Below are positions 15,318 through 61,054 of a stretch of DNA of 64,000 bases, piece by piece (within the stretch, counting starts at the first letter, position 1; the number at the start of each line of letters is the position of its first letter). The notes under the pieces were generated by a model. The model was not told the origin of the DNA and searched no databases. It was given only the letters and a program-made list of their open reading frames with translations. Origin of the DNA: Centroscyllium fabricii (lineage: Eukaryota); assembly GCA_051313645.2 (NCBI GenBank), contig JBNRSN020000028.1:46128001-46192000 (forward strand), given 5' to 3'. A program made the position numbers and the translations under genes.

Positions 15318-16225
15318 TTATTTCTGATTATTAATGAATTGAATACATGATGTAACCGGATATTTCACCACTCTCTTCACCTGCTCTCTGAACTTGGACT
15401 GGGTCACCCCATAAATAAATGTGTTTGTGCAGCAACTGAAACTGCGCAGCAGGAATCCGACTTGTCCAAAGACATATAAAGAACCAGTGTAATCAGTGGG
15501 ATTTGTTCCTGCAATGCTATAATATAAGAAATATATAACAAAGACCAGCCACAGCAGTATGAAACTGCCAGATATGGTGAAGAGTAAAATCACAGACTTC
15601 CTTCTGTTCTCCATCTCTGGGTCACTGCGATTCTCTCCCTTACTCTCACCCCTCAGTCTCTCACGGACACGACTGGCCACCAAAATGTGTCTGATTGTCA
15701 GAGCGTTGAGCAACAGAATTAAAGCGAATGGGAGCAATGGGGTTAAAACCGTGTCAAACCAGTCAAATACCACCCACCCGGGCTCAGTATAATAGCTCGG
15801 GATTGTGACACAGTACATTGTAACATTGTCGATTATCTCCCAGGTTTCATTTTTAAAGTAGAAGGGAACGTCTTTTAAACACAGCAGAATGCAACTTGTT
15901 GCCAAAACTGCAGCAGTAGTTTTCCCGGTGCAATATTTAGATTTTAGCTTCTGGCAACAAATGGCCACAAATCGATCAAAGGTGAAAGTGACGGTGAACC
16001 AGACAGAACAGTCGATGGCTGCACTGTTCAGGACAGAGATAACACTACACACAGGGGTGATGTCCAGGAAATTCACTGGGAAATAATGATAATTTATCTG
16101 GACCAGTATGACCTCAGTGACAATGACCAGGAGATCTGCAGCTGCCATGCACACCAGGTAGCGAGTGGTGCAGGTGGAGAGCCCGCACTTTCCCCGGGAC
16201 AGGATCACAATCGCCAGCAAATTCA
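15318..16225 (-). CDS. GPR139/GPR142-like class A GPCR, gene 1, exon 2 (TM1 end to stop)
   Basis: Intact 7TM frame with TFDRFVAICC, PVCS/YC disulfide pair, LTPLLPF, SDPEMENRRKS, NTFIY; polypyrimidine acceptor ttttttccttctctgttttatag at 16226-16248; phase fits exon 1 (67+908=975 nt). Confidence 0.93.
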
Positions 16226-16282
16226 CTATAAAACAGAGAAGGAAAAAAGACTGTAAATTACTGATCAAACATTCTCCGCATC

Positions 16283-16510
16283 TGATCAAGTTCCAGGGAA
16301 ATGTCAAACACCCGTGTCCGGTCCATCCCACGGGAGCAGTCAAACCTCCGGGACCAGTAAAAGCCCTGGGACTGGTCAACCCCCGAGTCTGGTCAAACGC
16401 CCAGGGCCGGTCAACACCCGATTCCTCTCCAACCCCCTGGATTGGTCAAACCCCCGGGTCCGGTTAATTCCCCGGAACCGGCCAAAGCCCCGGGTCCGTG
16501 ATCGAACATA
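16283..16510. repeat. Degenerate ~17-18-bp GC-rich minisatellite (ggtcaaacccccgggtcc-like)
   Basis: About a dozen imperfect gtcaaac/ccgg units just inside the GPCR intron. Confidence 0.7.
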
Positions 16511-16800
16511 CCCCGGGAGGTGATGCCCTGTTCGTCCTCCAGATTTGTGTATCTGTCCTACCTGGTCCTGCTTCGGTGTCCCCCACCCCCGTCCGACTGG
16601 AAGCCCGACTATCGACCAGGCTAAATGTCGGTGTCGGGGGCCAACCAACGACAAATAAACTGCACTGTGGAGTTGAGACACACCAAAATCCGCTAAAACC
16701 CGGACATCCACGTACCCTGTCTGATATTCCGCTTTCACCCTGCAACGCCGGCCATCGTACAGAACCCTCCTCTGTTAATATCTAGGCATTATTATTTGAA

Positions 16801-17500
16801 CAAAAGCAGAATACGGAGACTGCTGAAAAACTGATAAAAAGAGATTGCAGAAAACACTCAGCAGGTCAGACAGCGACTGTGAAGAGTCAAACAGGGTTTA
16901 CGTTTCAGGTCGTTGATCTTTCATCTGAACTGGAAGATATCAGAGATTAACAGTATTGAAGCAATGCTGGAGGCAGAGAAATGTGCGGCAGCATAAGGAA
17001 AGAAAAGGAGGATTGTCTGTGACCAGGTGTCACGTGTGCCGGGGAGACTGGATGCCAGTGGAAGATATGTTTGTTGGTGGCCTTAGCTGGACTTGACAGA
17101 AATGGCAGAGGATGGTCCGCTTAATGTCATGGCGGGTACAGCAGAAGTTGATGAAAAGAGGAACCCCACCAGGGCTCCAGCAGGGAGGGCAAGGGGTGAT
17201 GGCATCAATGCAGGATTGACACGGCCAAGGGGCCAGTCAGTCACAATGGCGGTAAATAGACGGCTGATGAAAAATGAAGACATTTCGGAAACACTGGTGT
17301 GGAAGGTGGCATCGTCAGAACATAAGGAAGGGAGATGGAGAAACATTGAGAATAGAATAGAGGCCTTCCAAGAAGCCCGGAGTGAGGAAGTGCATTAAAG
17401 ATTCCTGAGGGAGTGGCTGGGCTTATAGTAGATATTGGTGGACGGCCGAGCCCTTGAAAATGAAATCGAGAAATCCAGGAAGGTAAGCGAAGACGACTGT
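16801..17500 (-). mobile_element. Penelope-like element fragment (pLTR plus RT C-terminal coding)
   Basis: Minus ORF FLHLPSLCSDDATFHTSVSEMSSFF resembles PLE 'LRRICSD' region; decayed hammerhead at 16896-16930. Confidence 0.7.
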
Positions 17501-17685
17501 AGTTCAACATTTACATGTTATTCATTTATTTAAAATAGAAGATATAACAATTCCGAGGGTCTACAGACCAGTGAGGATAACGTCGGCGGTAGGAATGATA
17601 ATGGAATCCTTACTCAAATATGTAACAGAATCACATCTAGCAACACAAATATAAGAACAAGTAGTCAGCAGGTTTCCCGAAAGGA

Positions 17686-18410
17686 TTCATAGAATAGTTA
17701 CAGCACCGAAAGAGGCCGTTCGGCCCGTCGAGCCAGTGCTGGCTATCTGCCCCTGCACTTCAGCCAGTCCCAAAACCCCTCCCTTTCGCCGGAGCCCTGC
17801 AATATCGTTTCCTTCAGTTACTTATCCCATTACGTTTTGAAAGCGACAATTGTATCTGGCTGCTCCACCCTTTCAGAGATTGAATTCCGGATCATAACCA
17901 TTCGCTGCCTTTCAATGTTTTTGCTCATGACGCCTTTGGATCATCAGCACATCACCAAAAACCTCTGGTTCTCCACCGTTCCGCCAATGGGAACAGTCCC
18001 TCTATATCAACTCTGTCTACACTGTCTAGAGCACTCATGATTCTGATCATCTCTTTCAATTCTCCGCTCAACCTTCTCTGCTCTGAGGGGAGAACCCCAG
18101 TTTCTGGTATATCTAAGTAATTGAAGTCCTTGGAACCATTCTTGTACATATTGTCTGCAACCTCTCGAAAGCCTTCATGCCCTTCCTAAAGTGCGGTCCC
18201 TAGAATGGCACAGAATACTCCAGTTAATGCCGAATCAATGTTTTATAAATGTTTATCATAACTTGCTTGCTTTTGTACACAATATCCCTATTTATAAAGC
18301 CCAGATTCCCGAAAGCTTGTTTTTCGCTTTCTCAACCTGACCTGCCACCTTCAACGATGTTTATACATTTAAACTCAGCTCCCTCTGTTCCTGCACCAGC
18401 ATTCGAATGT
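17686..18410 (-). mobile_element. CR1 3' part
   Basis: Minus ORF EQRRLSGEL..DRVDIEGLFPL; tail catagaatagttacagcaccgaaagaggccgttcggccc. Confidence 0.75.
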
Positions 18411-21100
18411 CATGCTTGATTAATCTTAGAGAATTGTTTGAATAAGTATCAGAACGAGTAAATAAGGGTAATGTTGTAGATGAAATCTACTTTGATATTT
18501 TAAAACCATTCCAGAAGTTACCATATAGCAGACTGATTCACAGAGCAAGTGGAGTTAGGAGACAAGCAGAAGAATGGATAGCAAGATGGCTGTAAGAGCA
18601 GAAAATAGGGAGCAGTGGATAAAGCTATTTACTCAGATAGGTGGATGGTGAGAAGTGATGTTCCACAAGGATCGGCGTTGGGACCACTGCTGTTCACAAT
18701 TTACATAAACGGCATTGATTCGGGAAGCAAGCCCAAATTCACAACATGCAGTCGAATCTAATTGAGAATACAACTAATACAGAGGTAGAATGCAAATCAA
18801 TAACTGAAGACAGGAATACATTTGCAGAATGGGCGATTAAATGGAAAATTATTTTCAATATTGCTAAGTGCGAGCTACAGCATTTTGGTCGGAAGAATAA
18901 GTTTTGCAAATATTCCTTGAAAAATCTGAATCGGACTGGGGTAGAGTGGTCCCGATTATCAGAGTGGGGTAGAGTGGTCCCGATTATCAGAGTGGTGTAG
19001 AGTGGTCTCGATTATCAGAGTGGGTTAGAGTGGTCCCGATTATCGGACTGGGGTAGAGTGGTCCCGATTATCGGACTGGGGTAGAGTGATCCCGATTATC
19101 GGACTGGGGTAGAGTGGTCCCGATTATCGGACTGGGGTAGAGTGGTCCCGATTATCGGACTGGGGTAGAGTGGTCACGATTATCGGACTGGGGTAGAGTG
19201 GTCCCGATTATCGGACTGGGGTAGAGCGGTCCCGATTATCGGACTGGGGTAGAGTGTTCCCGATTATCGGACTGTGGTAGTGTGGTCCCGATTATCGGAC
19301 TGGGGTAGAGTGGTCCCGATTATCGGACTGGGGTTGAGTGGTCCCGATTATCGGACTGGGGTAGAGGGGTCCCGATTATCGGACTGGGGTAGAGTGGTCC
19401 CGATTATCGGACTGGGGTAGAGTGGTCCCGATTATCGGACTGGGGTAGAGTGGTCCCGATTATCAGACTGTGGTAGAGTGGTCCCGATTATCGGTCTGGG
19501 GTAGAGTGGTCCCGATTATCAGACTGGGGTAGAGTGGTCCCGATTATCGGACTGGGGGAGAGTGGTCCCGATTATCGAACTGGGGTAGAGTGGTCCCGAT
19601 TATCAGACTGGGGTAGAGTGGTCCCGATATCAGACTGGGGTAGAGTGGTCCCGATTTTCAGACTGGGGTAGAGTGGTCCCGATTATTGGACTGGGGTAGA
19701 GTGGTATCGATTATCGGACTGGGGTAGAGTGGTCCCGATTATCGGACTGGGGTAGAGTGGTTCCGATTATCGGACTGGGGTAGAGTGGTCCCGATTATCG
19801 GACTGGGTTGGAGTGGTCCCGATTATCGGACTGGGGTAGAGTGGTCCCGATTATCGGACTGGGGTAGAGTAGTCCCGATTATCAGACTGGGGTAGAGTGG
19901 TCCCGATTATCAGACTGGGGCAGAGCGGTCCCGATTATCGGACTGGGGTAGAGTGGTCCCGATTATCGGACTGGGGTAGAGTGGTCCCGATTATCGGACT
20001 GGGGTAGATTGGTCCCGATTATCGGACTGGGGTAGAGTGGTCCCGATTATCGGACTGGGGTAAAGTGGTCCCGATTATCGGACTGGGGTAAAGTGGTCCC
20101 GATTATCGGACTGGGGTAGAGTGGTCCCGATTATCGGACTGGAGTAGAGTGGTTCCGATTATCGGAATGGGGTAGAGTGGTCCCGATTATCGGAGTGGGA
20201 TAGAGTGGTTCCGGTTATCAGACTGGGGTAGAGTGGTCCAGATTATCAGACTGGGGTAGTGTGGTCCCGATTATCAGACTGGGGTAGAGTGGTCCCGATT
20301 ACCAGACTGGGGTAGAGTGGTCCCGATTATCAGACTGGGGTAGAGTGGTCCCGATTATCAGACTGGGGTAGAGTGGTCCCGATTATCAGACTGGGGTAGA
20401 GTGGTCCCGATTATCAGACTGCAGTAGAGTGGTCCCAATTATCAGACTGGGGTAGAGTGGTCCCGATTATCAGACTGGGGTAGAGTGGTCCCGATTAACC
20501 AGTAATTTAATGCAGCAACGCATGTTAACAAGGCCATAAATATACAAATAAAACTCTGGGGCTCATCTGGAGAAGGATAGAGTCTGAAAGCAAAGAGGTT
20601 AACTTAAACGTATATAGAAACTTGGTTATAGCACACTGAGCGCACTGTGTGCAGTTCTGATCCCCACATTACATAAATAATATGAAGGCTCAGGAGAAAG
20701 TGCAATTTCTTTTACAAGGATGACACCACAACTGAGATATTATCAACGTGAGGAAATATTTAACAGGCTGGGGCTCCTTTCTTTACAAATGAGAAGGCTG
20801 GGTGGTGGCCTAATATTGACCTTTACATTTTGAAGTTGTAACTTATGGTGGATGATTATACTTGTGATATGAGTGCAAAATTTGGAGATTATCGATAAAA
20901 GATAGTGACTGATCAATCCAATACGGAATTGAGGATGAATTATTTTACTCAGAGATTGGTTTGAATATGGAACTCGCTTCAACTTGGAGTCCTTGAGCCA
21001 AATAGCAGAGATTCATTTAAGGGTAAGCTGGAGAAGTACACGCGGTAGAAAGCAGTGGAAGGATTTTCTGATAGTTTAGATGAAGAGGAGTGGGAAGAAT
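18411..21100 (+). mobile_element. Old CR1 RT-to-3' end, interrupted by a 28-bp VNTR
   Basis: gttccacaaggatcggcgttgggaccactgctgttc (VPQGSALGPLLF); EWAIKWKIIFNIAKCE; resumes after 20497. Confidence 0.8.
18932..20497. repeat. 28-bp minisatellite, ~56 copies, consensus GGACTGGGGTAGAGTGGTCCCGATTATC
   Basis: Direct 28-bp periodicity (gtcccgat at 19033 and 19061), very homogeneous. Confidence 0.98.
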
Positions 21101-21228
21101 ATTAACACTAATCGGGTTTCTGTATAACACTGACCACGAGATTAGAACGTAACATTATCAGTCACAAAGCAAAACCAGAGACCAACTCACACACAGATTA
21201 CACAACGTCAATGGTTATACTCACTTAC

Positions 21229-21295
21229 CAGGAACACCAATGACAGCAATGATCACGCAGATTATTTTCTCCACACTGAGGTATGAGTCAACCAT
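21229..21295 (-). CDS. GPCR gene 1, exon 1 (MVDSYLSVEKIICVIIAVIGVP, phase-1 junction)
   Basis: ATG at 21293-21295; hydrophobic TM1 half; donor CTG|gtaagt at 21229/21228; splicing gives GVP-V-NLL and restores the TM1 GxxxN motif. Not in the ORF track. Confidence 0.88.
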
Positions 21296-21381
21296 TTTCT
21301 GTGTGAAGCGATGTGTCCTGTCCAACTGCAGGGAATCTCTCTGAATTAAACTCTGAGGTGATCCATTCCCAGCACCTTTAA

Positions 21382-21387
21382 TTTATA
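21382..21387 (-). promoter_or_regulatory. Candidate TATA box of GPCR gene 1
   Basis: TATAAA on the minus strand ~87 bp upstream of the ATG, in non-repeat DNA. Confidence 0.5.
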
Positions 21388-21841
21388 CGTTGCTGAATCT
21401 CCACGGGGACATTGAGATTGCAAAATCACTGAAAATACTTTTTCAAAACAATCTTTTGAACAAACAGATTACGACAGCCGAGATATTTCCCTGTTGCGAT
21501 GGAATATATTTAGAGCTGACATTGTAATTGAAAACCCCAAAGACCGGAAAATTCTGATCACATGAATTAACTAATGGAAATTGCCAGCTGTATCCTGCCG
21601 GCAATGGGCTTGTTCCTTCAAACTGAACCAAGCCCATCTCTACACCTCATCTTGTTTCAGTGATGTCCTTCACTCTGCTGAGGCCATTCAGTAATTATAT
21701 TCAAAATGTTACATTGCCCTTTCAGCGATGCTCAGCTGCACTCGGGGATGGGGGCTGCCCTATTTAACTGTGGTCATTCAGTAAGTAAATTAAAAATGTT
21801 ACATTGCCGTTTCAGGGATGCCCCGAACCATTCTGGTGTGA

Positions 21842-22978
21842 ACATAAGAAGATAAGAAATAGTAGTAGGAGTAGGCCATTTTGCCCTTCGAGCCTGCTCC
21901 GCCATTCATTGTGATCCTGGCTGATCAGTTTCCTCAGCTCCATTCACCGGCCCAACCGCCATATCACTTGATGCTCTTATTAGTGAGAACCCTCTGGACA
22001 TCTGTTTTGAATATACCCAATGACTGATCCTCCACAGTCCTCTGGGGTAGAGAATTCCAACAATTCACCACCTCTGAGTGAAGAAATTTCTTCTCATTTC
22101 AGTACTGAATGGTCCGCCCTTAATCTTGAGACTGTGGCCGTTTGTTCTAGATATCGCAGCCAAGGGAAACATTATCCGATCACCCATTGTATACAGCACT
22201 GTAACAATTTCGTATGCTTCAAAGAAATGCCTTCTCATTCTCCTCAATTCAAGGGATAACAGGCCTAGTTTACTCAATCTCTTCTCATCCGACAGTCCCA
22301 CCATCCCATGCACCAATCTTGTGCACCTTATTTGCACTCCAACTATGGCAAGTATAACCTTCGTTTGGTTAAGCAGAGCAAATTTGTACATAGTACTCCA
22401 GGTGTGGTCTCACCAAAGCCCAATGTAATTGTAGTAAAACTTATTTACTCCCGCACTCAAGGGCCCTTGAAAAGAAGCCCAGCATACCTATGGCTTCCTA
22501 CTGGCTTGCTGCACCTGCACATTCACTTTCCGTGACCCATGTACAAGGACACCCAGGCCCCTTTGAGCATCTAGATTTCCCAATCTCTCAACATTTAGGA
22601 ATCATTCTGCCTTTCTGTTGTCTCTACCAACGCGGATAACTTCACATTTATCCACATTATATAACATCAGCCAAGTTCCCGCACACTCACTTCGTCTGTC
22701 GAGCTCCCCTTGAAGACATTTCGCATCCTCTTCACAACCGACACATCAACCTTGCTTTGGATCACCAGCAGCTTTGGAAATGTTACCGTTAGACCCCCTC
22801 ATGCAAAGCATTTATATAGATTGCGCAAAGCTGGGGCCGACGCTGATCCTTGTGTACCCAAATAATCAGAGCCTGCCATCCTGAAAACGCTGCGTTTATC
22901 CCTGCACTTTGTTATCTGTCTGTTAATGAATTCACAATCCATGCTTTTATATTACCCCAATTCCACGTGCTTAATTTT
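21842..22978 (-). mobile_element. CR1 3' half
   Basis: Minus ORF LGLLSLELRRMR..MFPLA..TNGHSLKIKGGPF..NFFTQR; tail aacataagaagataagaaatag. Confidence 0.85.
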
Positions 22979-45400: not shown

Positions 45401-48161
45401 GGTACAGGAAGGGCAACTGTCAGTCAATTGGAATGCTTTTGTCACTGGTACAGGAAGGACACCTGTCAGTAAATTGGGATGTTTGTCTCGGAAACAGGAA
45501 GGTCACCTGTCAGTAAATTGAAATGTTTTGTCACTGGTACAGGAAGGACACCTGTCAGTAAATCGGGATGTTTGTCTCGGAATCAGGAAGGTCACCTGTC
45601 AGTAAATTGGGATGTTCGCGTCACTTGTACAGGAAGGACACCTGTCAGTAAACTGGGATGTTTGTCTCGGAAACAGGAAGGGCACCTGACAGTAATTTGG
45701 GTGATTTTATCTCTGCTACAGGAAGGTCACATGTCAGTAAATTGGGATGTTTGTGTCTCTGGTACAGGAAGTTCACCTGTCAGTATCTTTAGATGTCTGT
45801 TTCGCTGGTACAGGAATATCACTTGTTAGTTAACTGGGATGTCTGTTACTCTGGTACAGGAAGGTCACCATCTGTAAATTGGGCTGTTTGTGTCTCTGGT
45901 ACAGGACAGTCACCCATCAGTAAATTAGGATGTTTGTCTCTCTGGCACAAGACGGGCAGCTTTCTTCAAATTGGGATTATTGTGACTCTGGTACAGAAAT
46001 GTCACCTGCCAATAAATTGGGATTTCTGTGTTTCTGATACCGGAGAATCACCTGTCATTAAATTGAGATTTTTGCCTCTGGTGCAGGAAGGTCACCTATC
46101 AGTTATCGGGGATGTTTGTGTCTTTGGTACAGGAAGGTCAACTGTCAGTATATTAGGATGTTTGTGTCTCTGGTACAAGAATGAGTCCTGTCAGAATATA
46201 GGGATTTTTTTGTCTCTGGTTCAGGAAGTTCAGCTGTCGGTAAATTGGGATGTTTGTCTCTCTGGTACAGGAAGGTCACATGTCAGTATATTGGGATGTG
46301 TCTGTCTCGGTACAGGAATGTTACCTGTCAGTAATTTTGGACGTTTGTGTATAATGTACAGGAGAGCCAGCTGTCAGAAAATTGGGATGTTAGTGTCTCT
46401 GTTACAGGAGGTTCACCTGTCAGTATACCTGGATGTTTTGTCTCTGGTACAGGAAGATCGCCTTTCAGTAAATTGGGATATGATTCTCTGGTATAATTAG
46501 GTCAGCTGTCAGAAAATTGGGATGTCTGAGTCTTGGTACAGAAGCGCACCTGTTAGTATATTGGGATGTGTGTGTGTCTGGTACTGAAATGTCACCTCTC
46601 AGTAAATGTGGATGTTTGTGCCTCTTTTATAGGAGGTTCATCTGTCAGTATACTGGGAGGATTGTGTCTCGGGAACAGGAAGGCTACCTGTCAGTAAATT
46701 GGGCTGTTTCTGGATCAAGTACAGGCGTCTCACCTGTCAGACAAATTGGGTTGTTAGTGTCTCTGGTGCAGGAATTTCACCTGTCAGTATACTGGGATAT
46801 TTGTGTCACTGGTACAGGAAGGTTAACTGTCATTAAAATGGGTTATTGTGTCTCCGGCACAATAAGTTCACCTTTCATTAAATTGGGATGATTATGTCTC
46901 TGATACAGGAAGGTCACCTGTCGATATATTGGGATGCTATTCTCTCTGGTGCAAGAAGGGCACGTGCCAGTATTTTGGGATGTTGGTGTCTGTTGTGCAG
47001 GAAAGGCACCTGTCAGTATATTTGATTTCATGTCTCTCTGCTTCAGTAAGGTCACCTGTCAGTACGTTGGGATTGTGTGTCTTTGGTACAGGAAGGACAC
47101 CTGTCAGTAAAATTGAATGCTTGAGACTCTGGTACAGGACGGTCGCCTGTCAATAAATTGGGATCCTGTGTCACTTGTACAGGATGTTCGCCTGTCAGTA
47201 TACTGGGATGTTTTTTTCTCTGGTACAGGAACGTCTCCTGTCAATAAATTGGGATGTTTTATTCTCCGGTACAGAAAGGTCACCTGTCAGTAAATTGGGA
47301 TGTTTGTGTCTCTCGTACAAGAAGTTCACCTGTCAGTATACTGGGATGATTGTGTCTCTGGTACAGGATGGTCGCCTGTCAGTAAAATTGGAATGCTTGT
47401 TTTTCTGGTACAGGAGGGTCGCCTGTCAGATAATTGGTATGTTTTTGACTCTAGTACAGGAAGATCACATGTCTGTAATCTGGGATGTTTGCGTCTCGAG
47501 TACAGGAAGTTGACCTGTCAGTAAATTGGGATGCTTGTGCATCATGTACAGGAGTGTCACATGTCAGCAAGTTGGGATGTTAGTTCCTCTGGTACAGGAA
47601 GGTTACGTGTCATTAAAAACAGATGATTGTGTGTCTGGTACAGGAAGTTCACCTGTCAGTAAATTGGGGTCTTTGTGTCTCTGGCACGATGCGTTCATGT
47701 GTCAATAAATTGGGACGTATTTTTTTACGATAATGGAGGTTCACCTGTCATTAAATTGGGATGTTTATGTCTCTAACATGAATGCCACCTGCTTGTAAAT
47801 TGGGAGTTTGCTGTCTCTGGTACAGGAAGATCAACTGTAAGTCTATTTGGATGTTTGTGGCTTTGATGCAGGAAAGGCACCTGTCAGTAAATTTTGATGT
47901 TTGAGTCTCTGGTACAGGAAGGGCACCTATCAGTATATTGGCATGTTGGTGTTTCTAGTACAGGAAGGTCACCTGTCAGTGAATTGGCATGTTGGTGTTT
48001 CTAGTACAGGAAGGTCACCTGTCAGTAAATTGAGTTGTTTGTGTCCCTGGTAGAGGAATATCACCTGTCAGTAAATTTGGATGTTTGCGCCTCTTATAAT
48101 GGAAGCTCACATGTCAGTAAATTTGGATGTTTGTCGCTGGTACAGGAAGTCCCCCTGTCAG

Positions 48162-48655
48162 GAGGGGAGGTGGTGGCGTAGTGGCTATGGCACGAGACTA
48201 GTAAGCCAGCGGCTCAGTCAAATGCTCTGAGGATATGGGTTCAAATCACAGCACGGCAGCTGGTGGAATTTAAATTCAATTCAATTTAATTCTGGAATTA
48301 AATGTTAGTCTTATTAATGGCGACCATGATACCGTTATCGATTGTTGCAAAAATCCATCTGGTTCACTAATGTCCTTTAGGCAAGGCAATTTGCCGTCCT
48401 TACCTGGTCTGGACTACATCTGACTCCAGACCCACAGCAATGTGGTTGACTCTTAATGCCCTCTGAAATGGCCTAGCAAGCTACTCAGTTGTAAACAACT
48501 GCTACGGAACATTGTGTTTGTACCTACACCATATTGTCTGCAGCGGTTCAAGAAGGCGGTTCACCGCCATCTTCTCAAGGGCAATTAGGGATGGGCACTA
48601 AATGCAGGCCTAGCCAGCCAGCGACGCCCACATCCCATCAATGAATTTAAAAAAA
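48162..48655 (+). mobile_element. tRNA-derived SINE of a second family, inserted in the satellite
   Basis: A box tggcgtagtgg, B box ggttcaaatc, LINE-like tail gcagcggttcaagaaggcgg..gggcaattagggatggg, A-rich end; splits a monomer cctgtcag|tatactggg. Confidence 0.8.
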
Positions 48656-50384
48656 TTATACTGGGATGATTCTGTCTCTGTCACAGGAAGGTCACCTTTC
48701 AGTAAAATTGGGATGCTTGTCTTTCAGGTACTGCAGTGTCACCTTTCGGTAAATTGGGATATTTGTGGCTCGGTTACAAAAATGTCATCTGTCAGTAAAC
48801 TTGGATATTTGTCTCTCTGGTACAGGAGGTTCAACTGTCCGTATATTGGGATATATGAGTCGCTGGTGCAGGAAGGAGACCTGTCATTATTTTGGAATAT
48901 TTGTGTCTCTGGTACAGGAGGTTCACCTGTCAGTATATTGGGATGTTATTGTATCAGCTGCATGAATGTCACATGTTAATTAATCGGTATATTTGAGTTT
49001 CTGCTGCAGAAAGAACACCTGTCCATAAATTGGGATGTTAGTGTCTCTGCGACATGAAGGTCACCTGTCAGTATACTGGGATGTGTGTGCCTTGAGTAGA
49101 GTAAGGTTACTTGTCAGTAAATTGGGATGTTAGTGTATCATGTGCAGGAGAGTCACCTGTCAGCAAATTGGGATGTTATTGTCTCTGGTAGAGGATTTTC
49201 ACCTGTCAGTAATTTGTGATGTTTGTGTCTCTAGTACAGGAAGATCACCTGTCAGTTAATTGGGATGTTGGTGTGTCTGGTACAGGAAGTTTAGCTGTCA
49301 CTAAAATGGGATGATTGTGTCTCTGTAACAGGAAGGTCACCTGTCAGTAAATTGGGATGTTTCTGTCTCTGGCACCATACGTTCATCTGTCAATGAATTG
49401 GAATGTGTGTATTTCCGATACCGGAGTATCACCTTTCAATAAATTAGGATGTTTCTGTCTCTGGTACAGGAAGGGCACCTGTCAGTAAATTGGCATGTTG
49501 GTGTTTCTAGTACAGGAAGTTCACCTGTCAGTAAATTGAGTTGTTTGTGTCTCTGGTACAGGAATGGCACCTGTCAGTAAATTGAGTTGTTTGTGTCTCT
49601 GGTACGGGAGGGTCAGCTGTCTGTACATTGGGATTTTTGTGTCTCTGGTACAGGTAGGAGACCTGTCAGTAAATTACCATGTGTATGTCTCAGGTGCAGT
49701 AATTTCACCGTTGAGTAAATTAGGATGTTTCTGCTTCTGTTACGGGAAGGTCAAATTTCAGTAATTTGGGATTTTTTTTCTCTGGTACAGAAAGATCCCC
49801 TGCCAGTAAATTTGGATGTTTGTGGCACTGGTACGGGAGGGTCACCTGTCAGTTAATTGGGTTGTTTGTGTCTCTGGTACAGGAGGAGACCTGTCAGTAA
49901 ATTGAGATATTTGAGTCTATGGTACAACAAGTTCACCTGGCAGTAAATTGGGATATGTGTCTCTCTGGTAACGGAAGTTCGCCAGTCAGTAAATTGGGAT
50001 GTTTGTGTCTCTGGTACAGGAAGATCACCTGCCAGTAAATTGGGATGTTTGTGGCACTGGTACGGGAGGGTCACCTGTCAGAAATTTGGGATGTTTTTAT
50101 CTGTGGTACAAGAAGGTTAACTGTCAGTAAATTGGGATGTTGTGTCTCTGGTAAAGGAAGATCACCTGTCAGTCAATTGGGGCGTTTTTGTCTCTGGTGC
50201 AGGAAGGGCACATGTCAGTAAATTGGGATATTTGTGTCTCTGGTGCACGAAGGTCAACTGTCCGAAAGTTGGGACGTTTGTGTCTCTGGGACAGGAAGTT
50301 CAGCTGGCAGTATACTGGGATGTTTCTGTATCGGGTATGGGAAGGCCAGCTGTCGTTAAATTGGCATGTTATTGTGTCTGGTAC

Positions 50385-52738
50385 TGTAACGGTGGGGTGT
50401 GGGGCCCAAATGCGAAAACACTGAAGAGGCTGTCTAGAGCTTGAACTCCTTTATTCAATATAAATTACAGAAAACCTAATCAAATACATCCATACCATAC
50501 AAAATATATAACATATAACACAAGTCTTCACTGAAGACTGGCACGAGCTTAATACAGAAAACTGAACCCTCGGGACACTCAGGAAAGAGTATCTCAATGA
50601 CAGAAAGGGCCTCATATATAGTAGTAATGAAAAGTCCAAATATCTGAGTACAGCTGATTACAAACAATGTCCAACAGTACCCCCAGGACACTCGGCCAAG
50701 AGCATCCCTGGATATAGTCTTCCTCGGTGAAGTAGGAAACAGGAGCAGAAATGAAATGTCCAAATATCTGAGCACCGGTAATAAAAGGCAATGTCCAGAA
50801 TAAGTAATGGAACTCTCCCAGAGTCCGCCCTACAGCTGGGACTCATCTCTACCAGAGTCTTCAGAACGAGAAATCCATTATTCAACTAGCAGGGAAAGGC
50901 CCTACCAACACAGCCTTCATCGGAGCTCTAGAGATTCAGATCATAACAAGCAATGTCCATAAAGTATAAATGGAAAGTCCAAACCTGATTACAGGTGATG
51001 AAGAACAGTGTCCAGAATGTAGAATTTAGGAATCTTCCAGAGTCCGCCCTTCAATAGGGACTCACTCTACCAGAGTCTTCAGAAGGAGAAATCCATATCC
51101 AGGAATCTTCCAGAGTCCGCCCTACAGCAGGGACTCACTCTACATGAGTCTTCAGAAGGAGAAATCCAAATCCACCAGCTAACTGCCTCCCACGGAGCTA
51201 GAAACACCTCTGTGTGTCCTAGTACTGCCAAACTTGTTACAAGCTACTTGGTAGAATAAAGTAGTAATGATCCGGCGACTCCCTGGTCAAAGCACCCAGC
51301 TTATAAGCCGATCAGGCAAACAAGATTCATTAGTGCAAACCAATAAGATGCAGGTATTGAGAACCAGGAACACACAGGTATGTGAACAGTTAATTGAGAT
51401 ACAATGAACCAAAACAGAGAACAAAACATAGAATTCCAAAATGGATTCCTTAAAGGGGAATTCCCATCTGTGACAGAACCCCCCCCCCCCCTCAAAGGAT
51501 GACTGCTGACGTCCTAAGTACCCAAATGCCGAAATAGGGTGGGTGGAGGGGAGCGGAAGAGGGACAAACCGTCCTCCAGGAATAAAGGAATCCGAGGAGT
51601 GCTAGACGCTTCAGTGTCTGCTGGGCCCCCATTTTGGCCGGATCATTCTGTAACGGTGGGGTGTGGGGCCCAAATGCGAAAACACTGAAGAGGCTGTCTA
51701 GAGCTTGAACTCCTTTATTTAATATAAATTACAGAAAACCTAATCAAATACATCCATACCATACAAAATATATAACATATAACACAAGTCTTCACTGAAG
51801 ACTGGCACGAGCTTAATACAGAAAACTGAACCCTCGGGACACTCAGGAAAGAGTATCTCAATGACAGAAAGGGCCTCATATATAGTAGTAATGAAAAGTC
51901 CAAATATCTGAGTACAGCTGATTACAAACAATGTCCAACAGTACCCCCAGGACACTCGGCCAAGAGCATCCCTGGATATAGTCTTCCTCGGTGAAGTAGG
52001 AAACAGGAGCAGAAATGAAATGTCCAAATATCTGAGCACCGGTAATAAAAGGCAATGTCCAGAATAAGCAATGGAACTCTCCCAGAGTCCGCCCTACAGC
52101 TGGGACTCATCTCTACCAGAGTCTTCAGAAGGAGAAATCCATTATTCAAATAGCAGGGAAAAGCCCTACCAACACAGCCTCCATCGGAGCTCTAGAGTTT
52201 CAGATCATAACAAGCAATGTCCATAAAGTATAAATGGAAAGTCCAAACCTGATTACAGGTGATGAAGAACAGTGTCCAGAATGTAGAATTTAGGAATCTT
52301 CCAGAGTCCGCCCTTCAACAGGGACTCACTCTACCAGAGTCTTCAGAAGGAGAAATCCATATCCAGGAATCTTCCAGAGTCTGCCCTTCAACAGGGACTC
52401 ACTCTACCAGAGTCTTCAGAAGAAGAAATCCAAATCCACCAGCTTACTGCCTCCCACGGAGCTAGAAACACCTCTGTGTGTCCTAGTACTGCAAAGTTGT
52501 TACAAGCTACTGATAGTATAAAGTAGTATAATGATCCGGCGACTCACTGGTCAAAGCACCCAGCTTATAAGCTGAGCAAGCAAACACGATTCATTAGTGC
52601 TACCCAATAAGATGCCGGTATTGAGAACCAGGAACACACAGGTATGTGAACAGTTAATTGAGGTTCAATGAACCAAAACAGAGAACAAAACCCTAAAATT
52701 CAAAATGGATTCCTTAAAGGGGAATGCCATCTGTGACA
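50385..52738 (-). mobile_element. Non-autonomous LTR retrotransposon: two ~1.09-kb LTRs (50385-51475, 51649-52738) and a 173-bp internal region
   Basis: TG..CA ends; TSD GGTAC (50380-50384, 52739-52743); PPT (C-run at 51479-51491 on +); internal DNA similar to the pol end at 26632-26730. Confidence 0.93.
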
Positions 52739-55700
52739 GGTACAGGAAGTTGATCTTCCTGTAAAATTGGGATGCTTGTTTTTCAGTTACAGGAATGGCA
52801 CCTGCCAGTAAATTCGGATCTTTATGTTTCTGGCACAATCAGTTAATCTGTCAATAAATTGTGATGTTTCTGTCTCTGATACCGAAGGTTCACCTGTCAT
52901 TAAATTGGGATTTTTGTTTCTCGGTAAGAGCAAGGTCACCTGTCAGTAAATTGTGATGTTTGACTCTCTGGCACAGGAAGCTCAACTGTCCGTAAATTGG
53001 GATGTTTGTGCATCTGCGACAGGAAGATCAGCTGTCGCTATACTGGGATGTTGTTGTCGCGGGTATGGGAAGGTCACCTGTCCGTAAATTGTGATGTGTT
53101 TGTGACTGGAGCAGGAAGGTCAACTGTCTGTAAAGTTGGGATGCTTGTATTTCTGGTACAGGAATGACACCTGCCTCTAAATTGGGATCTTTGTGCTTCT
53201 CGCACAATCAGTTAATCTTTCAATAAATTTGGATATTTGTATCTCTGATATCAGAGGTTCACCTGTCATTACATTGGCATGTCTGTGTCTCGGTAAGAGG
53301 AAGGTCACCTATCAGTAAATTGGGATGTTTGTCTCTCTGGTACAGGAATCTCACCTGTCAGTAAATTGGGAAATTGGTGTCTCTGGTACCGGGAGGACAC
53401 CTGTCAGTACATTGAGAATGTTTTTGTGCCTGGTACAGGAATCTCACTTGTCAGTAAATTTGGATATTTGTGTGTCTGGTACAGGAAGGTCACATGTCAG
53501 TAAAATGGGACGTATATGTCTCTGGGACAGGAGATTCAGCTGTCGGTATACTGGGATGCTTGTGTCTCGGGTGTGTGAAGGTCACCATGTCAGTAAAGTG
53601 GTATGTTATTGTGTCTGGTACAGGGAGTTCACCTGTCTGTAAAATTGGGATCTTTTTGTTTCTGGCAACATCAATTAATCTGTCAAAAAATTGGGATGTT
53701 GGTGTCTCTGATACCGGAGGTTCACCTGTCATTAAATTGGGATGCTTGTGTCTCGGTAAGAGGAAGGTTACCTGTCAGTAAATTGTGATGATTTTGTATC
53801 TGGTACAGGATGGTCATATGACAGTATATTGGGATGTTTCAGTCTCTGGTACAGGAAGGACACCTGTAAGTAAATTGGGATTTGTGTGTCTCTGGTAAAA
53901 AGAAATGTCACCTCTCATTAAATTTGGATATTTGTCTCTCTGGTATAAGAAGTTCAACTTTCAGTATATTGGGATGTTTGTGTCTCTAGTACAGTAAGGT
54001 CACCTGTCGGTATAATGGGATGATACTGTCTCTGGTACAGGACGGTCACACAAACGCCCCAATTAACTGACTGTTGTCCTTCCTCTGCCAGAGATGCAAC
54101 CATCCCAATTTACTGACAGGTGAACTACCTGTACCAGTGACAGTAACATCCCAATTTACTGACAGGAGACCATTCAGTACCAGAGAATATCTCGTCTAAA
54201 TATACTCGCAGGTTTTCTATGTTTCTACGAAGCTCACCTGTCATTAAATTGGGATGTTTGTTTCTCTGGTACAGGATGATCACCTGTCAGTAAATTGCGA
54301 TGTTTGTGTCTGTGCTACAGGAAGGTCACCAGTGAGTATATTTAGATGATATTTTCTCTGGTATTGGATGGTCACCCCTCAGTAAATTGGAATGTTTGTG
54401 TCTCTAGTACAGGAAGGGCACCTGTCAGTAAATTGAGATGTTTGTGTGTCTGGTGCAGGAAGGTCACCTGTCAGTAAATCGGGATGTTTGTGTCTCTAGT
54501 ACAGTAAGGTCACCTGTCAGTAAATTGGGATATTGTTGTCTCTGGTACAGGAAGGGCACCTGTCCGTAAATTAAGATCTTCGTGTCTCTTGTAGAGGAAG
54601 GCCACCTCTCAGTAAATTGGGATGTTCGTGTCTCTGACAATGGAATGTCACCTGTCAGAAAAGTTGGATATTTGTGTCACTGATGCAGGAAGTTCACCTG
54701 TCAGTAAATTGTAATGTTTGAGTCTCGGGCGTGTGAAGGTCACCATGTCAGTAAAGTGGTATGTTATTGCGTCTGGTACAGGAAGTTCACCTGTCTGTAA
54801 AATTGGGCTTTTTGTGTTTCTGGCACAATCAATTAATCTGTCAATAAATTGGGATGTTTGTGTCTCTGATACCGGAGGTTTACCTGTCATTAATTTGGCA
54901 TGTTTCTGTCTCGGTAAGAGGAAAGTCACCTGTCAGTAAATTGTGATGATTTTGTCTCTGGTACAGGATGGTCATATGTCAGTATATTGGGATGTCTCAG
55001 TCCGTGTTATATGAAGGACACCTGTAAGTAAATTGCGATTTTGTGTCTCTGGTACAAAAATGTCACCTGTCATTGAAGTTGGATATTTGTCTCTCTAGTA
55101 TAAGAAGCTCAACTTTCAGTATATTGGGATATTTTTGTCTCTGGTAGAGTAAGGTTACCTGGGAGTATATCGGTGTGTTTGTGTCTCATGTACAGGAAGG
55201 ACACCTGTCAGTATATTGTGATGATACTATCTCTGGTACATGCCGGTCAACTTTCAGTAAATTGGGATTTTTGTGTCTCTGGCAGAGTAAGGTCAACTCT
55301 CAGTATATTGGGATGATACTGTCTCTAGTAAAGGAAGGTCACACAAACACCCCAATTAACTGTCAGTTGACCTTCCTCTAACAGATATGCAAATATCCCA
55401 ATTTATTGACAAGTGAACTTCCTGTACCAGTGACAGAAACATCGCAATTAACTGACTGTTGAACTTCCTCTACCAGATATGCAAACATCCCAATTTACTG
55501 ACGGGGGAACTACCTGTACCAGTGACAGTAACATCCCAATTTACTGACAGGAGACCATTCAGTACCAGAGAATATCTCGTCTAAATATACTCGCAGGTTT
55601 TCTATGTTTCTACGAAGCTCACCTGTCATTAAATTGGGATGTTTGTTTCTCTGGTACAGGATGATCACCTGTCAGTAAATTGCGATGTTTGTGTCTGTGC

Positions 55701-57225
55701 TACAGGAAGGTCACCAGTGAGTATATTTAGATGATATTTTCTCTGGTATTGGATGGTCACCCCTCAGTAAATTGGAATGTTTGTGTCTCTAGTACAGGAA
55801 GGGCACCTGTCAGTAAATTGAGATGTTTGTGTGTCTGGTGCAGGAAGGTCACCTGTCAGTAAATCGGGATGTTTGTGTCTCTAGTACAGTAAGGTCACCT
55901 GTCAGTAAATTGGGATATTGTTGTCTCTGATACAGGAAGGGCACCTGTCCGTAAATTAAGATATTCGTGTCTCTTGTAGAGGAAGGCCACCTCTCAGTAA
56001 ATTGGGATGTTTGTGTCTCTGACAATGGAATGTCACCTGTCAGAAAAGTTGGATATTTGTGTCACTGATGCAGGAAGTTCACCTGTCAGTAAATTGTAAT
56101 GTTTGAGTCTCGGGCGTGTGAAGGTCACCATGTCAGGAAAGTGGTATGTTATTGCGTCTGGTACAGGAAGTTCACCTGTCTGTAAAATTGGGCTTTTTGT
56201 GTTTCTGGCACAATCAATTAATCTGTCAATAAATTGGGATGTTTGTGTCTCTGATACCGGAGGTTTACCTGTCATTAATTTGGCATGTTTCTGTCTCGGT
56301 AAGAATAAATTGTGATGATTTTGTCTCTGGTACAGGATGGTCATATGTCAGTATATTGGGATGTCTCAGTCCGTGTTATATGAAGGACACCTGTAAGTAA
56401 ATTGCGATTTTGTGTCTCTGGTACAAAAATGTCACCTGTCATTGAAGTTGGATATTTGTCTCTCTAGTATAAGAAGCTCAACTTTCAGTATATTGGGATA
56501 TTTTTGTCTCTGGTAGAGTAAGGTTACCTGGGAGTATATCGGTGTGTTTGTGTCTCATGTACAGGAAGGACACCTGTCAGTATATTGTGATGATACTATC
56601 TCTGGTACATGCCGGTCAACTTTCAGTAAATTGGGATTTTTGTGTCTCTGGCAGAGTAAGGTCAACTCTCAGTATATTGGGATGATACTGTCTCTAGTAA
56701 AGGAAGGTCACACAAACACCCCAATTAACTGTCAGTTGACCTTCCTCTACCAGATATGCAAATATCCCAATTTATTGACAAGTGAACTTCCTGTACCAGT
56801 GACAGAAACATCGCAATTAACTGACTGTTGAACTTCCTCTACCAGATATGCAAACATCCCAATTTACTGACGGGGTAACTACCTGTACCAGTTACAGTAA
56901 CATCCCAATTTACTGACAGGAGACCATCCAGTACCACAGAATGCATCGTCTAAATATACTCACAGGTTTTCTATGTTTCTACGAAGTTCACCTGTTATTA
57001 AATTGGGATGTTTGTTTCTCTGGTATAGGATGATCACCTGTCAGTAAATTGAATTGTTTGTGTCTGTGCTACAGGAAGGACACCTGTGAGTATATTTAGA
57101 TAATAATTTCTCTGGTATTGGATGGTCACCTCTCAGTAAATTCGAATGTTTGTGTCTCTGATACAGGAAGGTCACCTGTCAGTAAATTGAGTTATTTGTG
57201 TCTCTGGTACAGGAAGGTCACCTTA

Positions 57226-57628
57226 GGGTGGCATGGTGGCATAGTGGTTAGCAAAGCTGCCTTACAGCACTAGAGACCCGGGTTCAAATCCAGCCTCGGG
57301 TACTGTCTCTGTGGAGTTTGCACATTCTCCCCGTGTCTGCATGGGTTTCCTCCGGGTGCTCCGGTTTCCTCCCACAGTCCAAAGATGTGCGGGTTAGGTT
57401 GATTGGCTATGATAAACTGACCCTTAGTGTTAGGGGGATTGAATATGTGGGGTTACGCGGATAGGGTGGGATGTGTGTCGGTGCAGGTTCGATAGGGATC
57501 GAGGGATATGGGGAAAAGGCAGGGACAGGGTACTAGGTTTGGATGATCAGCCATGATCTCATTGAATGGCGGAGCAGGCTCGAAGGGCCAAATGGCCTAC
57601 TCCTGCTCCTATCTTCTATGTTTCTATG
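57226..57628 (+). mobile_element. Full-length HE1-like SINE in the satellite
   Basis: A/B boxes, tggagtttgcacattctcccc central domain, (tttctatg)n tail; matches the reverse complement of 11720-12128. Confidence 0.9.
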
Positions 57629-58329
57629 TCAGTAAATTGTGATGTGTGTGTCTCTGGTACAGCAAGGTCAGCTGTCAGTAAATTGAGATGTTTGTGTGTC
57701 TTGTGCAGGAAGGTCACCTGTCAGTAAATCGGGATATTGTTGTCTCTGGTACAGGAAGGACACCTGTCAGTAAATTAAGATGTTTGTGTCTCTCGTACAG
57801 GAAGTCCCCCTCTCAGTAAATTGGGATGTTTGTGTCTTCAGTATAAGAATCGCAGCTTTCAGTAAATTGGGATGTTAGTGCCTCTGATACTGGAATGTCA
57901 CCTGTTAGAAAATGTGGATATTTGTGTCACTGGTACAGAAAGGTCACCTGTCAGTAAATTGGGATGTTTGTGCCTCTGTTACAGGGAAGTCTCCTGTCAG
58001 AAAATTGTGATATTTGTGTCTGCGCTACATGTAGGTCATCTGTCAGTAAATTGGACTGTTTTTGTCTCTGGTACTTGAAGTTCACCTGTCATTACATTGC
58101 GATGGTTTCTTTCTCTGGTACTGTCTGATGGCCAGTCCCATTAATCGTGGGCTTTGTTCCTCATGATTATGCCTATATGGCAGTTTGTGAATATCAGCGT
58201 TACACTAAATTATTGATGGTGATTGTTAGATATCCATAAGTTTTAGATATGCATGATCTTGGGAGTTGTGTGGCACTGCCAACACAGCAATTACTACTCC
58301 TCACTATTTTCTGTATGATTACATCTGTT

Positions 58330-59275
58330 GAACATCACAGAAAACAGCCCATTCCGCTCAATCTGCCCAGGCCGGAGTTTATGCTCCACTCTCGCCTCCA
58401 CCTGTAATTCCTCATCAAACTATCGGCATAACCCTCTATTCCCTTCCGCGGGAAGTGCTCATCTCGCCTCTCCTTCAGTGCATCTATACTATTCACTTCA
58501 ACCACTCGTTGTGGGAGAGAGTTCCTCATTCTCCCCATTCTCTGGGTATGAACTTTCTTCTGAATTCCCAATTTGATTTCATGGTTCCTTTCTTATATTG
58601 GTGACCTCTAGAGCTAGTCTTATCCACAAATAGAAACGCAGTTTCTGTATCTACTCATTCAGAACCTTTTACAATTTTAAAGACCCCTATTAGGTCACCA
58701 CTTTGCCTTCCTTTTTCAAGGGAAAAGAGACCCAGCCTGTTCACCCTTCCATGCCATACCCTTTCATTCCAGCGATCATCATTATATATCTGCTTTGAAC
58801 CCACACCAGTGCCACTATATCGTTTTTGTAATATGGCGACCAGAATTACCCAGAATCCAAGTGTGATCTGACAATTGTTATGCATCTTGAGCATATCTTC
58901 ACTAATTTACAATTACATCGCTCTAGAAATAAAACCCAGTGGTGTTTTATAGCCGTATTAACCTTATTAGCTACGTTTAGTAATATGTGTATTTGTACTC
59001 CGAGATCAAATTAATCCTCTACCCCACACAGACTCGCAGCCTTCAAGTGACAAGTGACCTCCCTACTCTTCCTACCAAAATGTAATACGTCTCATTGAGT
59101 TTTTTTGTAATTTATTTGACAACTAGATGCCCATTTTTCAAGTTTAGTAATTTATTCCTGTAATTTATTCCGGTCCTCCTGAATATTCACTATGCTAACA
59201 ATTTGGTGTCATCTGCAAATGTTGAAATTGTGTGTTTGATTCCAAAGTCTAAATTGCTAAAACATATCGTGTCCA
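58330..59275 (-). mobile_element. Old CR1 3' part
   Basis: NRLGLFSLEKGRQSGDLIGVFKIVKG; RNSLPQRVVEVNSIDA; tttgcagatgacaccaaatt. Confidence 0.8.
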
Positions 59276-59486
59276 ATTAGTGTGACCAATTTATCATGCC
59301 CGTACAAAGAGTCATTTGTTTAGTGTGGGACTGGAAAACATGTAGGCCAGACAATGTAGGATGGGCGGATCCCTTTACTGTCTCACAGTACAGCAATGCA
59401 GCAGAATTCATGTCTATTTGACCTGGTGACAACACATAAATAGACACATTTATTGAATTCACCTGTTCTGGAACCATAACATGCCG

Positions 59487-59505
59487 AGAGCGCCCTCTAG
59501 TGGTA
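59487..59505 (-). promoter_or_regulatory. Candidate CTCF-binding site
   Basis: Minus strand reads CCACTAGAGGGCGC (59490-59503), a near-consensus CTCF core, in non-repeat DNA. Confidence 0.6.
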
Positions 59506-60152
59506 AACGTTGGCAGTGCTCACTAGCAGGCAATTCCTGAAAAGAAAATGTGCCCTCTGAACACGACCTGGCAACACAGGAAGTAGTATTGGACGAAGCT
59601 GCTTCCTGGACTGCAGTTCAGACAGAGCACGGTGGCCACGCTTCTGCTATCCACACCCATCCTCTATCTCAGTGTCGGGCAAATCACAATATTTGTGATT
59701 AGCCTTACTTAATAGCATGCAAACTACATCATCCATGCGATATTTTGTCGACATCTTGTAAATAAGAAGGTTATTATCTGCCAGATATTAAGGATGCCGT
59801 TTATTTCTGTAGTTACACATTTATCTGTATTAAGTGGTCTATTGTGTTCACATGGACCTGTTTTTGCATTATCTGTAGCCCCTAGTGACCAGTATTTACC
59901 TCTATATAAAGAACACACTTTGTTTTGTTACAGTTTCACAATTTTATTCGAGTAAAGCTTCAAAACAGACACCGCCCGTCTCTGGAGGAGTTATTTGAAT
60001 AAGTGTTTAGCTGGCTGAAGAACCCAGACCGTCACCATGTCTGGCAGAGATCAGTGCATCACCTGATATCAATAAGATTGTTTCCCAAACTCTGAAGCAG
60101 TGAATGGACAATTCTTACAATGCAGAATTAAGTCCTGGGGTTTATACATTCA

Positions 60153-61054
60153 TTATTGTATTAATTTACCCAGTATATTCAGTGGATATGTGACCGCGTT
60201 CTTTAACTCCATTCTGAACTTACTCTGAGTCACTGCATAAATAAAGGTGTTGGTGCAAGAACTCAATAGCTGAAGCATATTTCCGCTTTCTTGCAGAATA
60301 AATTTGGGGTCACTGAAGCCTTTGATTTTATACTCAATTGTAAAACGCTGAAAAAAGAAATCGACAACATACGTCATCCACAACAGGATGAAACTGCCCG
60401 AGATGGTGAAGAGTAAGACGATAGACTTTCTCCGGCTCTCCATCTCTGGGTCACTCTGATTCTCTCCATTGCTGTGGGCTCGCAGTCTCCTGCGGGCTCT
60501 ACTGGCCGCTAGAATGTGTCTGACGGTCAGAACATTGAGCAGAAGAATCAACAGGAACGGGAGACATGGGGTTAGAATACGATCGAACCAGTCAAAGGCT
60601 CTCCATACGGGTGAGGTATAACGGATTTCTTTCAGTCTGCAATACCACGGGACATTATCAATGATGAACATGGGCTCGTGTATGAAGTACCAGGGGACGC
60701 TTTTCAGACATCCCAGCGCACAGACCGTTCCTATAACCACTGCCGCCGTTTTCTCGGTGCAATATTTTGTTTTCAACTTCTGGCAACAAATGGCCACAAA
60801 TCGATCGAAGGTGAAAGCGACCGTTAACCAGACCGAACTGTCTCTGGATGCATAAATCAGCGCAATACTGAGACTGCACACCGGGGTGATAGACAGGAAA
60901 CTACCTGGAAAATAAATACCCAGAATCCGGTTTAATATCACAGCGGTGAGAATGACCAGGAAATCCGTTACCGCCATGGACACCAAGTATCGAGTGATAC
61001 ATCCGGAGAGACCGCACCTTCCTCGGGATAGGATCACAATCGCCACTAAATTAA
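60153..61054 (-). CDS. GPR139/GPR142-like class A GPCR, gene 2, exon 2 (exon 1 not found, probably beyond the window)
   Basis: Intact frame with TFDRFVAICC, LTPCLPF, SDPEMESRRKS, NTFIY; acceptor tctctctcaccttcttgcag at 61055-61074, same position and phase as gene 1; AATAAA on the minus strand at 59943-59948. Confidence 0.92.

Follow-up and report, generated by a model that had tools for sequence, protein, structure and literature searches.

The closest described relatives of the genes considered here are orphan and peptide-type G-protein-coupled receptors (GPCRs). GPR139 binds L-Trp and L-Phe (PMC7318219), and GPR139/142 have been placed as sister to a protostome peptide-receptor group that holds the MIP, FMRFamide and myosuppressin receptors (PMC8557429). 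Three subtypes of an orphan group near GPR139/142, named 'GPR210', have been described from coelacanth, gar and fishes (PMC6504862). Peptide receptors gave rise to the srw chemoreceptors of nematodes (PMC3963977). Cartilaginous fishes have been described as poor in GPCRs (PMC8455134), and sharks and rays also as having few olfactory receptors (PMC10116579). We have analysed a 64,000-nucleotide stretch of the genome of the shark Centroscyllium fabricii (assembly GCA_051313645.2, contig JBNRSN020000028.1, positions 46,128,001 to 46,192,000), called the window below, which carries two paralogous receptor genes, gene 1 and gene 2. They belong to a family of several hundred genes whose expansion took place in cartilaginous fishes and likely began with a single orphan receptor. 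On our boldest reading, to which we give a probability of about 0.4, the family would be the chondrichthyans' own main family for chemosensing or chemical surveillance, with 500-1000 genes, and would derive from an orphan of the peptide-receptor type, of which frogs, salamanders and sturgeon still have a single copy. The gene models are already public under the misleading name 'probable GPR139'; what is new is a birth-and-death GPCR repertoire of independent origin.

Six-frame translation of the window reveals two-exon class A GPCR genes with open frames on the minus strand. The original prediction of two intact same-strand paralogs that share an intron position inside transmembrane helix 1 (TM1) holds, and both reading frames and all the motifs it quoted are present. 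Gene 1 consists of coding exon 1 (21229..21295; 22 codons plus one base, donor GTAAGT), a phase 1 GT..AG intron of 5003 bases (16226..21228) and exon 2 (15318..16225), which runs from the second half of TM1 to the stop codon (TAA, 15320-15318). Its first exon, one of three candidates in a blind scan and the sole one that reads as a TM1 start, encodes about 8-10 extracellular residues and then TM1. Exon 2 of gene 2 lies at 60153..61054 (TM1 second half to stop, TAA at 60155-60153) and is joined to a phase 1 intron of 2983 bases, which fills 61055..64000 and extends 37 bases past the window end. The corresponding coding exon 1 (23 codons plus one base) was located with a profile built from 60 homologous first exons; it lies beyond the window at 64107-64038, equal to G000:C800:46192038-46192107, C800 being the contig that includes the window. 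The products of genes 1 and 2 are 324 and 323 amino acids long, and both introns are placed two bases ahead of the Asn1.50 codon of TM1. A shared 5' leader and donor pattern has 18 matches genome-wide, namely both window genes, 15 exon-1 paralogs and one unrelated sequence. Among the 17 exon-1 loci the donor is damaged in two and a stop codon is present in one.

Exon 2 of the two genes is identical at 176 of 299 positions (59%). Divergence of the extracellular loops (ECL1-3), as claimed before, is evident from an identity of 16/43 (37%). The description of the intracellular parts as nearly identical was overstated, with 39 of 56 residues (70%) shared in the intracellular loops (ICL1-3) and helix 8, although the gradient from inner to outer face is real. 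A recent tandem pair is rejected by the tree: the two neighbours are drawn from two different old subfamilies, clade A for gene 1 and clade B for gene 2. The exon 2 product of gene 2 is 89% identical to a Heptranchias protein and 77-82% identical to the best skate and ray proteins; clade B is an old, conserved subfamily.

Both proteins match the Pfam profile 7tm_1 alone (E 4e-22 and 2e-23), and N1.50, D2.50, D3.49, R3.50 and Y7.53 are present in 105/105 sampled family members, which places the family in class A. No OR, TAAR, V1R, V2R or T2R profile was found in either window protein at E up to 0.01 in Pfam. With 7tm_1 as the single hit and orphan-receptor lineages as nearest relatives, the family is distinct from OR, TAAR, V1R and V2R, as had been proposed. 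NTFIY in place of NPxxY and the loss of the TM6 proline are found in both genes but are not universal in the family, as Pro7.50 is kept by 15 of the 105 members and Pro6.50 by six. The minimal N-terminus and the missing NPxxY were likewise confirmed in the genes and fail as family hallmarks, both being ancestral: true GPR139 is also without NPxxY, and in amphibians, coelacanth and amphioxus the N-termini of the single-copy relatives are just as short. Loss of Pro6.50 is derived in most of the family because the amphibian sister gene (see below) retains this proline. The cysteines of the TM3-ECL2 pair are present in 103/105 and 101/105 members. The AlphaFold model of the 89% identical Heptranchias protein (P0001; predicted local distance difference test score 83) has seven long helices and helix 8; its TM1 begins at residue 8, and its ECL2 forms a two-strand hairpin. 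A fold search with this model returned mostly peptide receptors and GPR139, with no discrimination among the peptide receptors. In one family member (L135, G000:C757:962200-964200) a coding minisatellite, made up of a long series of in-frame copies of an 11-residue unit, disrupts ECL2; three copies of this unit are found in L130.

Protein searches with the two window proteins gave 2695 and 2640 matches; among the 120 listed for each, 119 and 120 are named elasmobranch proteins, mostly labelled 'probable G-protein coupled receptor 139', so that RefSeq names the family after GPR139. Taken at face value, the name makes them additional GPR139/GPR142 genes with aromatic amino acids as ligands. Human GPR139 is the best PDB sequence match of the family (E 5e-9), and GPR139 resembles the window genes in having two exons, the same phase 1 intron before Asn1.50 and no NPxxY. 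Nevertheless we find this explanation hardly credible. True GPR139 and GPR142 are separate single loci in this genome: a GPR139 motif has one match, which is an intact GPR139 exon, and a search with shark GPR139 ranks GPR142 (58%) ahead of the family, which follows at 25-33% identity. Approximately unbiased (AU) tests reject the grouping of the family with GPR139 (p 1e-33) and with GPR139 plus GPR142 (p 0.002). From the six ligand residues of GPR139, E3.32, F3.33, H5x43, W6.48, R6.51 and N7x38 (PMC7318219), gene 1 retains one and gene 2 two. Moreover, GPR139/142 are without the TM3-ECL2 cysteine pair, whereas the shark family has the pair and is mostly without Pro6.50. One-to-one orthology to GPR139/142 is thus rejected by trees and AU tests, in line with the original prediction.

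Family size was estimated from motif counts in the 7.2-Gb genome. A first-look genome search gave about 1470-1490 candidates per window protein, 131 of which were scored for each (identity 60-100% and 56-100%). These candidates do not provide a copy count because unrelated GPCRs are included, as seen from chemokine-receptor-like matches. Exact matches genome-wide number 383 for a motif of 12 codons, 595 for nine codons at the TM3 end and 510 for a TM7-helix 8 motif, and reversed controls of all three motifs have none. The 595 and 510 matches bear out the expectation of hundreds of copies rather than a few. In the shared listed range the latter two motifs, which are independent of each other, overlap at 65/100 and 65/97 loci, which gives a union near 720 and a capture-recapture estimate, biased low, of 785-888 loci. 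Intactness was judged on exon 2 and its acceptor in 40 loci taken by fixed steps through the first 100 of the 595 motif loci; acceptor and open exon 2 are present in 29, and tolerating a one-residue variant of the motif raises the count to 30. The intact proteins of this sample have a median identity of 55%. Since 129 distinct sampled sequences fall into 108 clusters at 98% nucleotide identity, up to about one sixth of the sequences may be unmerged haplotypes or very recent copies. We infer at least 360-430 open genes; the number is probably 500-650.

The matches are concentrated on C800 (13-47 Mb, including the window), C1377 (238-281 Mb), C2, C811, C823, C1044 and many small contigs. Within 164 kb around the window there are two intact and two broken family genes. 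The broken members flank the window (L069, G000:C800:46107020-46108035, and L063, 46219758-46219856); one is split in ICL3 and one ends in TM2. An 87% paralog of gene 1 (L035) is found at G000:C800:47.22-47.27 Mb next to a copy, 96% identical, of the start of the satellite (the 46-bp array described below), and this adjacency suggests that this block was copied by segmental duplication to a place about 1.1 Mb away.

Could such numbers have accumulated passively, by segmental duplication of a redundant gene under relaxed selection in a repeat-rich genome, with unmerged haplotypes inflating the count? In rays the extent of tandem duplication grows with genome size (bioRxiv 10.1101/2025.06.08.657570), 11/40 sampled loci failed the intactness test, minisatellites flank the genes, and the reduction of distinct sequences to fewer clusters at 98% identity points the same way. 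We regard this explanation as very improbable. Most copies are open, the sampled intact proteins are as divergent as the median identity given above, and an exhaustive protein search yields 121 clusters at 50% identity (E up to 1e-30), with family members found in sharks, skates, rays and a chimaera. An omega (the ratio of nonsynonymous to synonymous rates) above 1 that is confined to the outer face, with a purified inner face (see below), largely refutes passive accumulation as far as function is concerned.

The taxonomic range was examined further with 20 divergent cluster representatives, of which 15 are named chondrichthyan (one Callorhinchus milii) and five have no species shown; four of these five carry an accession prefix that we take to be that of Callorhinchus. 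Five putative chimaera proteins, one with a species name, are found at three places of the tree, of which the starred branches force one only. Trees were built with LG+G4 and with a mixture model, and two long invertebrate-like rows of the first tree were left out of the later ones. Three lineages apart from GPR139/142 were recovered. The first joins a single shark gene (L076, G000:C1:325.15 Mb) with an anchovy gene and the second a single shark gene (L086, G000:C712:37.82 Mb) with coelacanth and teleost genes. The third unites the shark family with an amphibian/sturgeon gene with support of 100/99 in three trees; monophyly of the shark family itself is weaker (84/94, 83/84, 99/97). Short N-termini are common to all these outgroups of the family. 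The sister gene was found by word-index search in 20 amphibian clusters, each from a different named species, and in one sturgeon protein, and is apparently single-copy. No closer single ortholog of the amphibian gene was detected in the shark genome, where the best 136 matches have 29-36% identity. The three lineages resemble the GPR210 subtypes in outline and may correspond to them. In the accessible part of PMC6504862 GPR210 is described for bony fishes and coelacanth alone and without an expansion, whereas the shark family has hundreds of members. The bony-vertebrate sister gene has a fixed pocket while pockets of the shark family are variable; the short N-terminus is common to both.

Variability of the ligand-binding region was assessed at 26 predicted pocket positions, a set based on the literature and numbered here from the motifs. 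In amphibian orthologs (18 of 20, two partial ones being excluded) entropy at these positions is 0.13 as compared to 0.53 overall. The predicted amphibian pocket is nearly invariant and includes Arg2.61, Lys6.51, Lys6.55 and Arg7.35, and this invariance supports the numbering. In the 105 shark members the relation is reversed, with entropy of 2.03 at the 26 predicted pocket positions and 1.30 overall. At the six GPR139 ligand sites there are 73 different residue combinations among the 105 shark members.

Selection was analysed with purpose-written GY94 site models; for clades A, B and C their M0 likelihoods agreed with those of IQ-TREE. The proportions of the branches were taken from M0 and held constant, columns with gaps were removed together with the columns next to them, and posteriors were obtained by naive empirical Bayes. 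The alignments exclude broken loci, duplicates and two loci in which no start was called. Clades A and C were fitted directly and clade B on a grid. Positive selection with omega of at least 3 is observed in four of six subfamilies and lies almost wholly on the extracellular face. More specifically, comparison of M8a with M8 gives a likelihood ratio test statistic (LRT) of 102 for clade A (n=29), with omega 3.0 at 12% of sites, and of 158, 150 and 56 for clades C (n=15), E (n=12) and D (n=7), respectively. Selected sites are on the outer face in 20/21 cases in clade A, 20/21 in C, 21/21 in E and 5/5 in D, and the cytoplasmic half is conserved (omega 0.2-0.4). In clade A selected sites are found at 8 of 26 predicted pocket positions as compared to 3 of 65 other outer helix positions (p 0.002); the excess at predicted pocket positions in clade C is not significant (p 0.19). 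Outer sites alone, on their own tree, give LRT 69 and 86 and inner sites -0.1 and 5.0. The signal is present in all six gene thirds (LRT 25-75), and in ten null simulations, five of them mosaic, LRT was at most 1.2 in 10/10. Uniform purifying selection on the outer face is therefore absent in four of the six subfamilies, as the variable ligand face of the original prediction would have it; gene 2's own subfamily, taken up below, departs from that picture.

Based on anatomy, that is, a conserved inner face and a variable ligand face, we are highly confident that the family is a recognition repertoire. It resembles OR, TAAR, V1R/ORA, V2R/OlfC and T2R receptors in being a clustered birth-and-death repertoire with pseudogenes, a conserved inner face and a variable pocket. 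Its short N-terminus is shared with some vertebrate chemoreceptor families. It belongs to none of these families by sequence and is of independent origin. Catshark has 34 V2R genes, its other olfactory families number 4-9 genes apiece (PMC10116579), and V2R clusters reach 65 genes at most (Squalomix preprint); the shark family is about ten times as large as any shark chemoreceptor family reported in the accessible parts of these two sources. The srw receptors of nematodes are at most a parallel expansion from related stock: look-alike clusters of the shark family carry Srw domains and the window proteins themselves fall below the Srw and Srx profiles. Our preferred explanation, to which we give just short of an even chance, is a chemosensory role, in which the receptors would sense external cues in cells of the nose, taste bud, skin or gill or in sensory nerve endings.

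The proposed course of events is as follows. An ancestral receptor, whose pocket was fixed and probably bound an anion, would have undergone duplication in cartilaginous fishes. Its descendants in amphibians retain four basic residues in the predicted pocket, which suggests that the ancestor had a single conserved and probably anionic ligand. Since the copies kept the cytoplasmic face (see the low omega there), they probably kept the G protein as well, and a single shared G-protein signal is predicted. Duplication may have freed pocket and loops to diversify, giving many different binding pockets. Peptides or charged metabolites are the likeliest predicted ligands because the predicted fold, the ECL2 hairpin and the cysteine pair resemble those of peptide receptors. 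Old subfamilies such as gene 2's, now under purifying selection, would detect stable cues, and young ones such as gene 1's, still under diversifying selection, would track changing cues.

Several observations weigh against this chemosensory reading or weaken the evidence for it. There is no positive selection in clade B, to which gene 2 belongs (n=30, LRT 2.4), or in clade F (n=13, LRT -2.3). In clades B and C the inner half has the lower synonymous rates, and trees from gene thirds share only 13-15/26 and 4/12 splits; this rate gap and the disagreement between segment trees make gene conversion likely and omega values approximate. Surface loops with omega of 3-5 or more are equally characteristic of arms races between host and pathogen. 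In catshark, Go and TRPC2 are expressed in almost all olfactory neurons, which fits V2Rs (PMC10116579), and no GPCR is among the top 50 genes of an olfactory library in the accessible part of PMC11979771. An O/E site within 600 bases of the ATG is present in 0/17 exon-1 loci, with a chance expectation that is also near 0. Finally, four RNA-like sequencing runs (their RNA status is guessed) from two other organisms and two studies each contain 79-161 contigs that match gene 2 at 80% or more, and the presence of many members in each of the four runs could mean broad or blood-cell expression.

Other results from the runs and promoters bear on expression. One loose contig end of a relative (run X4) reads LLAAVGVP and then VN, which is the exon 1-exon 2 junction at the predicted place. 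Comparison of the runs with the entire gene 2 gave no joint of exons 1 and 2 among the matches listed, which are dominated by the intronic long interspersed element (LINE), and none of the runs listed has an RNA-like match to this exact gene. A TATA-box-like site lies at 21382..21387 (minus strand), 92 bases before the gene 1 ATG. A TATA match within 200 bases of the ATG is found in 16/17 exon-1 loci (shuffled mean 2.5), most of the loci being close paralogs. At the 17 loci O/E, octamer, C/EBP, RUNX and GATA motifs were uninformative and TATA alone stood out. Gene 1 paralogs (L193-L196, L198-L200, L203-L206) have, at about 270-300 bases before the ATG, an E-box-like site beside a pair of TAAT cores; the shared site may come from shared ancestry, as the loci are close relatives.

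Mammalian MRGPR and formyl-peptide receptors are class A tandem expansions with selection on the extracellular side and with roles in sensory neurons and immune cells. They are absent from the 16 PDB sequence matches and from the fold matches listed, and the shark family is far larger. By analogy, members of the shark family may be innate-defence sensors in leukocytes, mast-like cells or barrier epithelia that detect peptides or metabolites of microbes and parasites, or pathogens that bind the loops may drive the change. Pocket variability and selection fit this explanation equally well. Selected sites of clades D and E are mostly in loops and not in the deep pocket, and the predicted fold is peptide-receptor-like. 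MAS1 and its relatives are missing from cartilaginous fishes according to the accessible part of PMC8455134, and many members occur in each RNA-like run of two studies. On the other side, the family is not mentioned in the accessible supplements of two immune single-cell studies, a weak point as these contain little text. C/EBP and RUNX sites are not enriched near the start, and ETS sites are found in 9/17 loci as compared to 5.1 after shuffling (weak). We consider innate defence a close rival of the chemosensory role, if somewhat doubtful. Reproductive recognition, with receptors of sperm, egg or reproductive tract or for pheromones diversifying by sexual selection, would account for fast lineage-specific turnover with strong positive selection, and some catshark V2Rs are expressed in testis (PMC11979771). 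It is improbable in view of old subfamilies that are about 80% conserved between sharks and rays.

The remaining features of the window are mostly repeats. Downstream of gene 2 a 46-bp minisatellite array with higher-order duplications occupies 33482..58121 (about 25 kb). This minisatellite occurs on four contigs only (27 of 28 candidates scored) and often follows genes of gene 2's subfamily (L002-L010) at a distance of 0.2-7 kb, and for that reason we consider that it travels with this subfamily. Within the gene 1 intron lie a repeat of 18 bp (16327-16498) and 56 tandem copies of a 28-bp unit (18930-20497), and a LINE fragment lies near 62270-62860 in the gene 2 intron. A GC-rich degenerate repeat is found at 5263-5800. 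A further tandem array, with about 41 copies of a 48-bp unit (L061:220-2192), lies just past the window end and starts about 110 bases upstream of the gene 2 ATG. Translations at 1261-4797, 10100-12600 and 26600-29800 reveal a long CR1/L2-type LINE with frameshifts, two decayed stretches resembling long-terminal-repeat retrotransposons and smaller LINE fragments. Elsewhere in the genome, at least five clustered chemokine-receptor-like genes unrelated to the family lie at G000:C1377:5.7-6.3 Mb (L102-L105), and L102 and L103 read as CXCR1/2-like.

As to novelty, no description of the family was found in the literature on expansion of GPR139-like or orphan GPCRs in cartilaginous fishes, a search whose coverage leaves out most subscription papers. 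The accessible parts of the supplements of PMC10529500, PMC8455134, PMC13188829, PMC10770119 and PMC10115646 do not mention it. A shark family about ten times the size of known chemoreceptor families, with selection on the ligand face, overturns the GPCR-poor picture of these fishes whatever the tissue. The single-copy relative in Xenopus and axolotl, with its fixed cationic predicted pocket, offers a direct route to the ancestral ligand. A sensory role, if it holds, could account for the mismatch in sharks between large olfactory organs and tiny repertoires of a few dozen known receptors, and vertebrate chemoreceptor families would then have arisen independently once more. An immune role would mean a large unrecognised innate-sensing system in the oldest jawed lineage.

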